In this document: one piece after another, positions 12,634-17,288 of the stretch
Layout of the letters: every line of letters begins with the position of its first letter
Numbering within the stretch: position 1 is the stretch's first letter
Source of the DNA: Marine Group II euryarchaeote MED-G38
GTDB taxonomy: Archaea > Thermoplasmatota > Poseidoniia > Poseidoniales > Thalassarchaeaceae
Length of the DNA: 64,000 nucleotides
Assembly (NCBI GenBank): GCA_002457145.1
Contig: NTJP01000005.1
Span: forward strand, 36,000-99,999
Direction: 5' to 3'
Translations under genes and position numbers: made by a program
Notes under the pieces: model-generated
Told to the model about the DNA's origin: nothing
The model's database searches: none
Seen by the model: only the letters and a program-made list of their open reading frames with translations

Positions 12634-13035
12634 ATGAGTAATGTTGAAGTAGATCATATAGGAATAGCCACGGAGTCTATAAAACATAGTAGTGTATTTT
12701 GGGAGTGTTTAGGATTCACTAGTTCGGGGGAAGAAATAGTAGAGGAACAGGGCGTAAAGATTAGATTTCTTACTGGAAAACAAGGTTCAAAGATAGAATT
12801 ACTAGAGCCTCTAAAAGAAGATACTCCGATAGGAAAATTCATTAGAAATAGAGGCCCAGGAATACAACAATTAGCAATTAAAGTAGTTGATATAAATAAA
12901 ATTGTTTTAGAATTAAAAAAGTCAGGTATAAGAATAATTAATGAAAAACCAAGTATAGGTGCAAATGGGAAACTAATCTCATTTATTCACCCTTCCTCTA
13001 CTGGAGGAGTCCTGGTAGAATTAATTCAAGATTAA
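12634..13035 (+). CDS. mce: Methylmalonyl-CoA epimerase
   Basis: VDHIGIA, EQGVKI, IELLEP and FIHPSSTGGVLVEL; abuts the mutase gene. Confidence 0.93.
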   Translation: MSNVEVDHIGIATESIKHSSVFWECLGFTSSGEEIVEEQGVKIRFLTGKQGSKIELLEPLKEDTPIGKFIRNRGPGIQQLAIKVVDINKIVLELKKSGIRIINEKPSIGANGKLISFIHPSSTGGVLVELIQD

Positions 13036-13074
13036 ATTAACAATAATCAAAAGTAAAAGACACTGGGCCGTATT

Positions 13075-13374
13075 ATGGAAACACTAATATGTCGTTTTGA
13101 AAAATTAGAAAATATCAAATCTGAAGTATTGGATAATGAAATTATGTTTCTGGCTGATACCTTAGAGATGTTAAGAATAACAGATGAAATATCTAACGAT
13201 GCATTCTTAGATGCTGGTATGATACAAGGTGGATTATCGATAATATCTAATCTATTATCTCAAGGCCTTAATCCAGAAGATGTTCGAAACCAAATAAATA
13301 GATTAAAACAAAAAAGTATTGCATTATCAAAAACTTATCCAGAATTAGATAAATTGATTGAAGAAAGAAGATAA
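13075..13374 (+). CDS. Hypothetical helical protein (99 aa)
   Basis: ORF filling the gap; no motif recognised. Confidence 0.7.
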   Translation: METLICRFEKLENIKSEVLDNEIMFLADTLEMLRITDEISNDAFLDAGMIQGGLSIISNLLSQGLNPEDVRNQINRLKQKSIALSKTYPELDKLIEERR

Positions 13375-13414
13375 TACTTAGGTAATATTCAGGTAATACT
13401 TGAGTAATATTTAA
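13372..13414 (+). promoter_or_regulatory. Four 11-bp-period direct repeats; candidate RHH operator
   Basis: TAATACTTAGG / TAATATTCAGG / TAATACTTGAG / TAATATTTAA, ending about 25 bp upstream of the RHH gene start. Confidence 0.6.
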
Positions 13415-13438
13415 TAATAAAATCTAGTTCCAATAATT

Positions 13439-13612
13439 ATGCCTAAAGTTAGTTTAGATATGCCTCAACAAATTATTGAGGACCTAAGAAAACATGTTGG
13501 AGACGATAGGAAATATGTAAGTTTGGCGGATGCCATTAGAACAGGTTGTAGAAAATTGTTAGATCAATTGGATGAAATTGACGCACGTCATGGGAGGATT
13601 GAGAATGAATAA
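13439..13612 (+). CDS. Ribbon-helix-helix (CopG/Arc-like) regulator (57 aa, not in ORF track)
   Basis: MPKVSLDMPQQIIEDLRKHVGDDRKYVSLADAIRTGCRKLLDQLDEIDARHGRIENE. Alternating beta strand, then two helices with the Y.S..DAIR motif. Its stop overlaps the folE start. Confidence 0.85.
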   Translation: MPKVSLDMPQQIIEDLRKHVGDDRKYVSLADAIRTGCRKLLDQLDEIDARHGRIENE

Positions 13613-14180
13613 TATAGGACGAAAAGAAGCTGAATCTGCAATTAAGACTTTACTGAAATACTTAGAAGATGACTTTAATAGAGAAGGACTAAAAGAAACT
13701 CCTAAAAGAGTCATAGATTCATTTGATGAGATATTTGCTGGTTACCAGCAACGACCATCAGAGGTTTTAGCATCAACGTTTAATGCAGAAGGTTACGATG
13801 GAATCGTTCTTCTGAGAGATATTGAATTTTATTCTACATGTGAACATCATTTACAACCATTTAGCGGTCGAGCACATATTGCTTACATACCCACAGATAG
13901 AATTGTTGGGATCAGTAAATTAGCAAGGATTGTAGAATTATACGCGAGAAGATTACAGAATCAAGAAAGAATAACAATATCTATTGTAGATGATATTGTT
14001 GAAAATTTAAATCCATTAGGAGCAGGGGTGATATTAGAAGCAAGACACGGATGTATGCAATGTCGTGGCGTATCCAAACAAAATGCTGTTATGACAACCA
14101 GTGCTATGAGAGGGGTATTTTTCGAAGATTCTGGGGCCCGTTCTGAATTAATGCAATTAATCAGGAGTAGGGAACTGTGA
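13605..14180 (+). CDS. folE: GTP cyclohydrolase I (type IA)
   Basis: REGLKETPKRV, STCEHHLQPF, GISKLAR, RRLQNQER and HGCMQCRGV. ATG 13605 follows GGAGG. Confidence 0.96.
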   Translation: MNNIGRKEAESAIKTLLKYLEDDFNREGLKETPKRVIDSFDEIFAGYQQRPSEVLASTFNAEGYDGIVLLRDIEFYSTCEHHLQPFSGRAHIAYIPTDRIVGISKLARIVELYARRLQNQERITISIVDDIVENLNPLGAGVILEARHGCMQCRGVSKQNAVMTTSAMRGVFFEDSGARSELMQLIRSREL

Positions 14181-14773
14181 GCACCTACCCCATTGTTGAG
14201 ATATTTCACTCAGTTCAAGGTGAAGCATTTCATACTGGGGTTCCACATGTATTTATCAGATTTGGTAACTGTAATTTAAGATGTGAATGGTGTGATACAG
14301 ACTTTCTAACATTTCATGAAATGTCGTTAGAACAAATAATCAATCAAGTAGTATCATACAATTGTAAAAGAGTTATTTTTACAGGTGGAGAACCTTGTAT
14401 GCAGGATTTGAATACAATAGGTAAAGAATTAAAGAAATATGATATTCATCTCTCTGTCGAAACCAACGGAACTATAAGAGTCCCAAATATCATAGATTGG
14501 ATTTGCGTCTCTCCAAAAGATCAAATTTATCCAAATGTGAATATTGAACAACGTACTGGAGACGAATTAAAGGTTGTTTATTGTGGACAAGATCTTTCAA
14601 TTTATGATGATATTAAAAAAGGATTCAAACATCATTACATACAACCTTGTTACATAGAGAACGATAGTATTGAATCGAATGGAAGAAGTTTTAGTATAGT
14701 TGAAAAAGTGGTAAAGTCTAATCCGGGATGGAGACTATCATTACAAACTCATAAATGGATGGGAGTTGATTGA
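14177..14773 (+). CDS. queE: 7-carboxy-7-deazaguanine synthase (radical SAM)
   Basis: EIFHSVQGE, FIRFGNCNLRCEWCDT, TGGEP, ETNG, VSPK and WRLSLQTHK. Confidence 0.95.
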   Translation: MSTYPIVEIFHSVQGEAFHTGVPHVFIRFGNCNLRCEWCDTDFLTFHEMSLEQIINQVVSYNCKRVIFTGGEPCMQDLNTIGKELKKYDIHLSVETNGTIRVPNIIDWICVSPKDQIYPNVNIEQRTGDELKVVYCGQDLSIYDDIKKGFKHHYIQPCYIENDSIESNGRSFSIVEKVVKSNPGWRLSLQTHKWMGVD

Positions 14774-15862
14774 ATGAGAGTAGTTATGGCATTAAGCGGA
14801 GGAATGGATTCTACAGGGCTATTACTACGTCTTTTATCAGATGGATATAAAGTGACATGTTTAATATATGATTATGGTCAAAAGCATATTATAGAAATTG
14901 AAAGGGCTCTTCAGAATTTAACTTATATAAATAATAACGGGATCAAAGTAGACCATAAAGTAGTAAATCTATCTAGTGTAATGGGATTATTTCATTCATC
15001 ATTAATTAAAAATAATGAAGAAATTCCTGAAGGCCACTATGAGGAAGAACAAATGAAATCAACAGTTGTGCCAAATAGGAATGCGATTTTCGCCTCAATT
15101 TTGTATGGTTATGCGTTGAGTATTGGATTAAAAGAAGATACTAATGTAAAAATAGCATTAGGAGTTCACTCAGGAGACCACGTTATATATCCAGATTGCA
15201 GACCAGAGTTTTATGAGTTATTAGAACAAGCCTTTGCAAAAGGCAATTGGAACTCCGAAAAAGTTTCTTTGCACTTGCCTTATATTGATGGAAATAAAGA
15301 AACAATATTAAGGGATTCTATCAATTCATGTAGAAAATTAAGACTTGATTTTGATACTGTTTTTGCTAATACGAATACCTCTTATAACCCTGATTCTAAT
15401 GGTAGATCTTCGGGCACTAGTGGTGCCGATATTGAAAGAATACTAGCATTCTATTCTATTGGTAAGAAAGACCCAGTGGAATATGTAAAGCCATGGGAAA
15501 ATGTATTATCTGAAGCTTTAAAAACTAAATTAAGATATAATGTAATGAAAGAAAATGGAACCGAGCAGCCATTCACAGGTGAGTATGATAAACACTTCAA
15601 AGAAGGGGTTTATACCTGTTATGATTGTGGTAAGAAATTATTTTCATCTAAATCTAAATTTGATTCCGGATGTGGCTGGCCAGCATTTTCTGAAGAATTT
15701 GATAATGCAGGTATAATAAAAATAAATGATAATTCCTATGGAATGAATAGAATTGAAGTAAGATGTAGTGGATGTGAATCACATTTAGGCCATCTTTTCC
15801 ATGAATCAAAAGGTCCAAGATATTGCATAAATTCTATATGTTTAAAATTCGAGGGAAAGTAA
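14774..15862 (+). CDS. queC: 7-cyano-7-deazaguanine synthase fused to C-terminal methionine-R-sulfoxide reductase (QueC::MsrB)
   Basis: N-terminal part has SGGMDST, YGQKH, TVVPNRN and YPDCRPEF. From about 15530: GTEQPFTGEY, CYDC, KFDSGCGWPAF, EVRCSGCESHLGHLF and RYCINS. Confidence 0.92.
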   Translation: MRVVMALSGGMDSTGLLLRLLSDGYKVTCLIYDYGQKHIIEIERALQNLTYINNNGIKVDHKVVNLSSVMGLFHSSLIKNNEEIPEGHYEEEQMKSTVVPNRNAIFASILYGYALSIGLKEDTNVKIALGVHSGDHVIYPDCRPEFYELLEQAFAKGNWNSEKVSLHLPYIDGNKETILRDSINSCRKLRLDFDTVFANTNTSYNPDSNGRSSGTSGADIERILAFYSIGKKDPVEYVKPWENVLSEALKTKLRYNVMKENGTEQPFTGEYDKHFKEGVYTCYDCGKKLFSSKSKFDSGCGWPAFSEEFDNAGIIKINDNSYGMNRIEVRCSGCESHLGHLFHESKGPRYCINSICLKFEGK

Positions 15863-16318
15863 ATGGTAACTAAAATAATGAGATGGGTAGAAACTGATAC
15901 AGGGCATAGAGTTCCTAATCATAAAAGTAAATGTAGACATTTTCATGGCCATAGATATAGATGGGAGGCCGTTATTGAGGGTGATGTTGTTAGTCAAAAA
16001 GGTGTTTCTGATGAAGGTATGTTAATGGATTTTTCAGATATTTCAATTATTCTTAATACGGAGATACACGACATAGTAGATCATTCATTCTTAGTTTATG
16101 AGAATGATTTGGAGGCGCTTAAAGCACTAGAAATATTGGAACCGGGACATAGAACCTTGGTATTACCATTCATCCCAACAGCTGAAAACCTAGCCAGATG
16201 GGCTTTTGAAAAAGTTGAGAAACATATTAAAAGTTCGTATCAAAACAAGTTAAGGTTAGTTTCTTTTAATGTTAGAGAAACCCCCAAATCATGGGCTAGT
16301 TGGACTCCTGATCTTTAG
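15863..16318 (+). CDS. queD: 6-carboxytetrahydropterin synthase
   Basis: GHRVPNHKSKCRHFHGHRY, GMLMDF, PTAENLA and ETP. Confidence 0.93.
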   Translation: MVTKIMRWVETDTGHRVPNHKSKCRHFHGHRYRWEAVIEGDVVSQKGVSDEGMLMDFSDISIILNTEIHDIVDHSFLVYENDLEALKALEILEPGHRTLVLPFIPTAENLARWAFEKVEKHIKSSYQNKLRLVSFNVRETPKSWASWTPDL

Positions 16319-17048
16319 TAAATGACTTATTTGCACTTTTAATTACTCCTAAAATACGATGTATTTCATCGTCTTTAGGTAGACCTCTTAAGATTACTCT
16401 AAATAGCGTTTCTTCAATACCTTTCTTTGAATGAGATTTTACAGGGAGTACTTGTGATAATTGAAAAATTTCTTCTCTTAATTGCTTTCTTAGGTCAGGA
16501 GATAAAATTCTGTCTGTAGCAATATTATCAGCATTCTGAAACCATTCATAGCATATTATTGAGACTGCATGGCTCAAATTCATTATAGGATATCCTTCCC
16601 ATGTAGGAATTGATAGTAGAATATCACATTTTTGCAATTCTTCATTTAATAAACCGATACCTTCTGGACCAAAAATTAATGCTATTTTATTATCACTTTT
16701 TTTTAAATTATTGGATAGTTCTTTGGGGTCGAGAAAATGTCTAAAAGATATTTTACTGCCAAATTCTCTTTTACCTGAAGTACCAACCAATAAAGAACAA
16801 TCTTTGCTTGCACTTGGAATGTCATCAAAGAATGATGTATTATCTAAGACACTTTGAGCGTGTTTAGCCCTATTTCTGGTTTCATTTGACCAAGATTTAG
16901 AATTTCCTATGATACGAAGATCTGTTACACCAAAATTTAACATTGAACGTGCAACTGCGCCAATATTTCCATCAAATTGTGGTCTTACTAGTATTATACA
17001 CAATTTATTCCCATATTCAGGAAGTGGAACTTCAAGCCTTTCACCCAT
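16296..17048 (-). CDS. trmJ: SPOUT tRNA methyltransferase, TrmJ family
   Basis: ILVRPQFDGNIGAVARSMLNFG, ALIFGPEGIGLLNEEL and YPIMNLSHAV. Confidence 0.9.
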   Translation of the reverse strand: MGERLEVPLPEYGNKLCIILVRPQFDGNIGAVARSMLNFGVTDLRIIGNSKSWSNETRNRAKHAQSVLDNTSFFDDIPSASKDCSLLVGTSGKREFGSKISFRHFLDPKELSNNLKKSDNKIALIFGPEGIGLLNEELQKCDILLSIPTWEGYPIMNLSHAVSIICYEWFQNADNIATDRILSPDLRKQLREEIFQLSQVLPVKSHSKKGIEETLFRVILRGLPKDDEIHRILGVIKSANKSFTKDQESN

Positions 17049-17072
17049 ATGTACTCTCCTAATAGGAGTACC

Positions 17073-17288
17073 TTAATCAACACGTCTTTGTTTATATCGC
17101 GTAATATATCCTGCTATCCAGTTACGCATTTTCTTATTTGTAACTTCTTCTCCTTCGGAATTACCTAAATCTGTATACATAGAGACATATTTCTTGTTAT
17201 TTTCAAAATCACCGGTGAATTTGTCTGGATAATCATCCACCAATCTTAATGCTCTAATTTTAATAAAAGAAGGTCGAATATTACCCAT
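17073..17288 (-). CDS. rps17e: 30S ribosomal protein S17e
   Basis: [20 protein letters not shown] and [13 protein letters not shown]. Confidence 0.95.

Follow-up and report, generated by a model that had tools for sequence, protein, structure and literature searches.

Canonical QueC (structures 3BL5 from B. subtilis and 2PG3) combines a PP-loop Rossmann fold with a set of catalytic motifs and a tyrosine in the zinc region, and is encoded in an operon with queD and queE. The QueC fold is also found fused to a second catalytic domain, in QueC–QueD (P0182) and in the GAT–QueC of Crenarchaeota, and in both the partner is a deazaguanine-pathway enzyme. MsrB occurs as a stand-alone two-cysteine enzyme (E. 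coli 6SYM, human MsrB3 6QA0) and in one chain with other enzymes, as in MsrA–MsrB (3E0M, 5FA9, 7E43) and PilB (Trx–MsrA–MsrB), whose partners act in the same repair pathway. Here we describe an open reading frame (ORF) that joins QueC to MsrB in a 64,000-nucleotide window (the whole stretch of DNA analysed) from Marine Group II euryarchaeote MED-G38 (order Poseidoniales, phylum Thermoplasmatota; contig NTJP01000005.1, positions 36,000 to 99,999). In contrast to the MsrB partners above, QueC is an enzyme of nucleobase biosynthesis with no known link to the repair pathway; in contrast to the QueC partners, MsrB stands outside the deazaguanine pathway.

We consider it probable that the ORF encodes a genuine bifunctional fusion of two translationally coupled neighbours which, judging from the sequence, would have kept both activities, and whose main effect would be a fixed 1:1 co-expression. 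It brings two well-known enzymes together in a new combination of domains and adds a new QueC variant, and is not a new kind of system. Marine group II archaea rank among the most abundant archaea in surface seawater; as they are uncultured, gene fusions provide one of the few indications of how their enzymes are connected. When a conserved operon linkage ends in a single protein, this is a hint of the classic “Rosetta stone” type, in this case towards a relation between tRNA modification and the repair of oxidative damage, two processes for which we know of no connection. No description of a QueC–MsrB fusion, or of a QueC without the zinc motif in a que operon, was found in the literature searched; the available part of the main text of a preprint on QueC (10.64898/2026.04.08.717055) mentions neither MsrB nor SelR, and its supplementary neighbourhood table could mention the fusion.

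The fusion ORF and its parts are located in the window as follows.

14774..15862, + strand, queC::msrB fusion ORF of 362 amino acids, with an ATG start, a TAA stop and no internal stop
14780..15454, + strand, QueC domain, residues 3-227, with SGGMDS, YGQKHIIE, VPNRN and YPDCR
15380..15430, + strand, degenerate QueC zinc-motif loop, residues 203-219, in which S203, S213, S216 and D219 replace four cysteines
15494..15550, + strand, junction helix, residues 241-259, in which the QueC C-terminal helix passes straight into the MsrB core
15527..15853, + strand, MsrB (SelR) domain, residues 252-360, with zinc ligands C282, C285, C331 and C334, resolving C300 and catalytic C351

The initial annotation had described a single uninterrupted ORF in which QueC is followed by a complete MsrB inside a preQ0 (7-cyano-7-deazaguanine) operon, and the ORF reading and the Pfam and NCBIfam profiles agree with it. 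All the motifs that it named (SGGMDS, VPNRN, YPDCR, CYDC, CSGC, GCGWP and RYCINS) are present, and neither an internal stop nor an obvious ribosome-binding site before the MsrB part was seen. PF06508 covers residues 3-227 with an E-value of 1.1e-39 (136.5 bits, cut-off 22) and PF01641 covers residues 252-360 with an E-value of 1.7e-42 (144.4 bits, cut-off 24.9). Nor did sequence reading reveal an ATG ahead of the MsrB part that follows a clear ribosome-binding site. An internal start that would yield a free MsrB was considered at M258, which is conserved in 118/122 fused sequences, but no ribosome-binding-like sequence was seen before it. One RNA run (X18) contained a 151-nt contig over 15496-15646; it carries little weight, since DNA carry-over is possible and split operon genes would be co-transcribed anyway.

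Canonical QueC converts 7-carboxy-7-deazaguanine (CDG) into preQ0 with ATP and ammonia. The preprint (10.64898/2026.04.08.717055), a 2026 survey of the family in which canonical QueC forms Cluster 1 of PF06508, defines QueC as a zinc-dependent metalloenzyme by SGGxDS and C(x)8CxxCxxC, to which it adds YxQxHxxE, VPxRN, YPDC and an essential tyrosine in the zinc region. The fusion QueC has SGGMDS at residues 8-13, YGQKHIIE at Y33-E40, VPNRN at V99-N103, YPDC at Y139-C142 and the zinc-region tyrosine at Y204; the catalytic motifs YxQxHxxE, VPxRN and YPDC and the essential tyrosine after the first zinc position are thus all kept. The PP-loop (SGGMDS), VPNRN and YPDCR are identical in 122/122 fused sequences. 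Foldseek placed the QueC half on 2pg3 (template-modelling score normalised as TMt, 0.72) and 3bl5 (TMt 0.76), while PDB sequence matches to QueC end at residue 172 or 150.

A point absent from the initial annotation is that the QueC half lacks all four hallmark zinc cysteines. The residues aligned with C(x)8CxxCxxC are S203, S213, S216 and D219, invariant in 122/122 fused sequences, and the comparison is based on the relatives P0130, P0131 and P0147, which retain the four cysteines. Relative to canonical QueC, the fusion differs by the replaced cysteines, by a score below the equivalog level and by the added C-terminal MsrB. All QueC sequences of the order that were examined are without the four cysteines, and the split and stand-alone QueCs fetched read TSY..SSG.SG in this region. 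QueC without the cysteines is likewise found apart from MsrB, in genus g10 (loci L015, L016 and L018) and in the unrelated metagenomic clusters P0122, P0124, P0127, P0128 and P0140. A QueC thus appears able to dispense with its hallmark zinc-cysteine motif, which bears on how the family is annotated and understood. Some QueC relatives carry additional domains: P0123, P0125, P0152, P0247 and P0245 contain inteins or homing-endonuclease domains (Intein_splicing, Hint, LAGLIDADG) near residue 140, and P0134 has an N-terminal HNH domain.

MsrB enzymes reduce Met-R-sulfoxide with the help of thioredoxin. The MsrB half exceeded the NCBIfam TIGR00357 cut-off (143.3 bits, cut-off 113.05) and matched MsrB3 (6qa0) among PDB sequences with an E-value of 3.7e-32. 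In Foldseek, solved MsrBs were matched with a probability of 1.00 and a TMt of up to 0.83, the best-fitting chains showing a root mean square deviation of 1.3-2.0 Å over about 113 columns and 44-50% identity. It shares with stand-alone MsrB the two CxxC zinc pairs, the resolving cysteine in GCGWP, the catalytic cysteine in RYCINS and HLGH; it differs in that the start of its N-terminal helix is deleted, with the QueC C-terminal helix in its place, and in not being a free protein. C282, C285, C331, C334, C300-P303 (the GCGWP residues), H337, H340 and R349-Y-C351-I-N-S are invariant in 122/122 fused sequences, whereas the residues between the paired zinc cysteines (CYDC and CSGC here) vary among them. 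The invariance of the MsrB catalytic and zinc residues, together with that of the non-zinc QueC motifs, indicates that both halves are under purifying selection. Pfam recognised only QueC and SelR in the ORF, with neither an MsrA (PMSR) nor a thioredoxin domain.

The structure of the window protein was predicted with AlphaFold2 from 105 aligned sequences, with a mean predicted local distance difference test (pLDDT) score of 93.8 and a predicted template modelling (pTM) score of 0.88. The prediction contains a single helix, residues 241-259, running across the junction, with pLDDT values of 96 and 94 in its two blocks. A long-linker form of the fusion (G003, 384 amino acids; pLDDT 96.2, pTM 0.89) was predicted with a helix at 243-265 followed by MsrB's own helix at 268-275. 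The high pTM values of these two-domain chains suggest, indirectly, a fixed mutual orientation of the predicted domains. Along the junction, W241, A248, L253 and V257 are invariant and V244, L245 and L249 are found in 119-121 of the 122 sequences. The long-linker fused proteins, of about 378-394 amino acids, are near-plain concatenations of QueC and MsrB, and relative to them the window form is short of 16 alignment columns, which comprise the QueC tail and the start of the MsrB N-terminal helix. The structurally integrated junction proposed in the initial annotation is supported by the predicted continuous helix and by the 16-column deletion; the tryptophan and leucine register that it had pointed to does not align with the W..L..Y.V of MsrB, and this part of the proposal did not hold.

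The fused state was recovered from DNA of independent origin. In seventeen DNA runs from seven studies, all marine or aquatic metagenomes, at least 97% of the words sampled from 14400-16300 are present. Contigs from three studies (X12 record 9, 14400-16300; X14 record 20, 15287-16300; X11 record 6, 15093-16300) span the junction with no gaps and no indels listed among the four runs compared. The sole variant at the junction, T>G at 15509, replaces S246 by A.

The fusion is not confined to one assembly. Matches to the window protein were found in 262 of 301 sampled genomes of the order, and at least 136 single matches cross the domain boundary; this count is a lower bound, obtained from 150 matches listed, with 208 further ones existing. 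The boundary-crossing matches listed come from nine genera in two of the three families of the order. Both Pfam domains are present in all of the best clusters listed (120/120; 69-99% identity; NCBI, JGI, ENA, Logan and Tara). Among the best 150 representatives of a library of 1.84 billion proteins, only three have both domains, namely the full-length P0121 (381 amino acids) and two junction fragments, and no second lineage with a QueC–MsrB fusion appeared among these 150. Homologues are named in their sources either “7-cyano-7-deazaguanine synthase” or “MsrB [Candidatus Poseidoniaceae archaeon]”. Public names are thus one-sided, giving QueC or MsrB and never both, so that one of the two functions is lost from metabolic reconstructions of the group.

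Forty-two genomes, chosen for having two or more matches and not at random, were searched again. In 33 of them a separate msrB follows queC immediately and in the same orientation, in five the two are fused, in three (G196, G258 and G208) they are non-adjacent as assembled, msrB lying on another contig than queC in G196 and G258, and one (G281) is without msrB. By contrast, a search of 93 genomes from other orders of the phylum listed both genes in 38, and in none of these were they adjacent; they were placed on separate contigs or at distances of 221 kb and 607 kb. The order-wide adjacency of queC and msrB argues for their co-expression. Three genomes of 96-98% completeness (G002, G005 and G015) gave no MsrB match with the window protein as query.

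The arrangement was compared across 59 fetched loci, hand-picked and not a random draw, of which 24 are fused, 29 split-adjacent and six without an adjacent msrB. The msrB ATG overlaps the queC TGA as ATGA in 15 of the 29 split loci, and in others the two genes overlap by 8-17 nt. In two loci, L051 (G020) and L052 (G102), queC and msrB lie in one frame with a single stop (TAG or TAA) between them and an ATG one codon later. Such arrangements are to be expected shortly before or after fusion, and the two single-stop loci are intermediate between the split and the fused states. The complete order folE-queE-queC-msrB-queD was found in 46 of the 53 msrB-holding loci, the other seven being without a folE or queD match in the fetched stretch; in the g10 loci, queD follows queC directly with no msrB between. 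The queC–msrB linkage predates the fusion. Two related loci may represent rearranged or interrupted copies: in G115 the N-terminal part of QueC (residues 1-136) lies on a separate contig from the rest, and in G173 the match to the neighbouring msrB is confined to two pieces within a 257-amino-acid frame.

In a quick tree of the QueC domain, 12 short-linker rows nest among the long-linker rows, and a second short lineage (L019 and L061) stands apart. More than one state is held within genera g1, g4, g13, g17 and g21. The fused gene departs from taxonomy, the window protein being 70-74% identical to that of g17, a genus of another family, vs 57-59% to those of G087, G159 and G101 of the same genus, which suggests that the locus has been exchanged within the order.

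The window genome (1.37 Mb, 75% complete) contains the fusion as its only QueC match and its only SelR match. It also encodes one arcTGT of 718 amino acids with TGT, C2 and PUA domains, one ArcS-type DUF5591 protein and, on another contig, one separate MsrA. From gene content, the archaeosine route appears complete in this genome, and the fused protein would be the only visible source of both predicted activities.

We propose the following course for the origin and function of the fusion. The starting state would have been an msrB directly 3' of queC in the operon, as throughout the order, often ATGA-coupled. Both reading frames would then have been joined when the stop was lost or the frame shifted slightly, and a later deletion of about 16 residues would have taken the linker and the start of the MsrB N-terminal helix, giving the compact 362-amino-acid form, whose domains would be linked rigidly by a single predicted helix. 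The N-terminal part would be a QueC-type, ATP-dependent maker of preQ0 for tRNA archaeosine, of a variant without the usual zinc-cysteine motif, and the C-terminal part a complete zinc-containing two-cysteine MsrB that would reduce methionine-R-sulfoxide. Fusion would mainly fix a 1:1 co-expression of enzymes already co-transcribed in the lineage; we do not infer a coupling of the two reactions at the level of their substrates.

Several observations weigh against this interpretation. The QueC half scores 128.7 bits with NCBIfam TIGR00364, under the equivalog cut-off of 150.3, and the missing hallmark zinc motif leaves room for a different QueC chemistry. The number of fusion events is unsettled, since parsimony on the QueC-domain tree gives six fused/unfused changes, while the approximately unbiased (AU) test does not reject a tree that groups all 24 fused rows together (p-AU 0.093); the loci in the tree and the junction table were, moreover, hand-picked. 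Finally, the order-wide position of msrB, the translational coupling and the rigid predictions exceed what a purely neutral fusion needs, and this excess leaves room for a real functional partnership.

Such a partnership could take the form of a dedicated coupling in which MsrB serves the deazaguanine pathway itself, by repairing oxidised methionines of QueC in cis (e.g., the invariant methionine of SGGMDS) or those of QueE or QueD, or through a redox switch in the Cys300/Cys351 disulfide by which oxidative or light stress would adjust the supply of preQ0 and archaeosine. Within the order the two genes are as a rule adjacent or fused (33 + 5 of the 42 genomes, besides the junction-spanning matches), which was seen in none of the 38 genomes of other orders, about half of the split loci show the ATGA overlap, for both fused forms the prediction is a rigid body of two domains, the junction residues are conserved, and the fusion is the only MsrB found in its genome. 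We nevertheless regard this coupling as rather unlikely. The same zinc-motif-less QueC occurs without a neighbouring msrB in g10, MsrB went unmatched in the three nearly complete genomes and lies on another contig in G196 and G258, and the presence of QueC without an adjacent or any MsrB in some genomes indicates that it is independent of MsrB. MsrB is also joined to many unrelated partners, such as redoxin (P0253) and GNAT (P0242), and no chemistry linking both reactions was found in the literature searched. The initial annotation had proposed that deazaguanine synthesis is physically coupled to oxidative repair or redox sensing, for example with MsrB protecting QueC or QueE; as a functional link this would be a hypothesis, and QueC occurs without msrB.

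A bolder version, which we hold to be unlikely, is that the order-wide linkage, tightened more than once into a rigid fusion, reflects a true partnership in which the zinc-free QueC is kept active or switched by its own MsrB module, so that preQ0 and archaeosine supply for tRNA in these archaea of the sunlit ocean would be tied directly to oxidative stress. If true, it would be the first mechanistic link between an enzyme of the 7-deazaguanine pathway and protein oxidative repair.

The reaction of the QueC half may instead have changed, for example by halting at the amide ADG or by using another carboxylate substrate. The absent zinc motif, the score under the QueC equivalog cut-off and the early end of the PDB sequence matches would fit such a change, which is quite improbable given that SGGxDS, YxQxHxxE, VPxRN, YPDC and Y204 are all kept and that this only QueC-family match in the genome lies in a canonical operon context and occurs together with queD, queE, arcTGT and an ArcS-type protein.

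Structural compensation, by which a zinc-bearing MsrB was recruited to stabilise a QueC stripped of its zinc-ribbon cysteines, would account for an order whose examined QueCs all lack the four cysteines, for an MsrB that brings a Cys4 zinc site and for the predicted rigid packing of the domains. It is nonetheless very improbable: cysteine-less QueC exists without any MsrB in g10 and in the five metagenomic clusters named above, and the invariant S/S/S/D replacement suggests that the loop is stabilised otherwise.

That assembly or annotation produced the fusion, by dropping a stop, shifting the frame or joining separate genes into a chimera, can practically be dismissed. Relatives do include split forms that show a single stop or a frame offset of 1-2 nt, and one relative (G267) has an in-frame TAG within the QueC part, but an artefact is excluded by the indel-free agreement of contigs from three independent studies over the junction, by fused homologues in NCBI, JGI, ENA, Logan and Tara assemblies and by the junction-spanning matches in other genomes. 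The in-frame TAG of the fused homologue in G267 (locus L010) could itself reflect a pseudogene, a sequencing error or recoding.

The fusion is the third gene of an operon in the order folE-queE-queC::msrB-queD, in which all starts and stops abut or overlap. The surrounding genes are as follows.

13572..14180, + strand, folE (GTP cyclohydrolase I), first gene of the operon, with a 4-nt overlap with the queE start
14177..14773, + strand, queE (radical-SAM 7-carboxy-7-deazaguanine synthase, Cx14CxxC type), whose stop abuts the queC ATG
15863..16318, + strand, queD (6-carboxytetrahydropterin synthase), whose ATG directly follows the fusion TAA
16296..17048, - strand, SpoU-family RNA methyltransferase, convergent, its 3' end overlapping queD (Pfam SpoU_methylase, E-value 9.2e-25)

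The folE product matched Pfam GTP_cyclohydroI with an E-value of 4.7e-68 and NCBIfam FolE with 235.8 bits (cut-off 174). For the queE product, Pfam Radical_SAM gave an E-value of 8.2e-11, and the top NCBIfam model was TIGR04508 queE_Cx14CxxC (E-value 1.2e-39) at 136.3 bits, below its cut-off of 240. The queD product matched Pfam PTPS with an E-value of 9.5e-27 and TIGR03367 QueD with 77.4 bits, below the cut-off of 89.25. An Rfam scan of 13000-17200 returned no family at gathering score, and hence no riboswitch accounting for the operon. Genes for the archaeal ribosomal proteins S17e, L31e and S19e lie just downstream of the operon; the marine archaeal origin stated in the initial annotation agrees with these genes, with the source names of the homologues and with the metagenomes that contain the stretch.

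The operon as a whole may derive from a source outside the phylum; its folE is of type I and its queE of the Cx14CxxC type, and QueC identity is 29-42% in other orders of the phylum vs 46-59% for the nearest relatives from outside the order in the global library. The convergent spoU gene is kept at the same position in 47 of the 59 related loci and may be a second tRNA-modification gene retained beside the operon.

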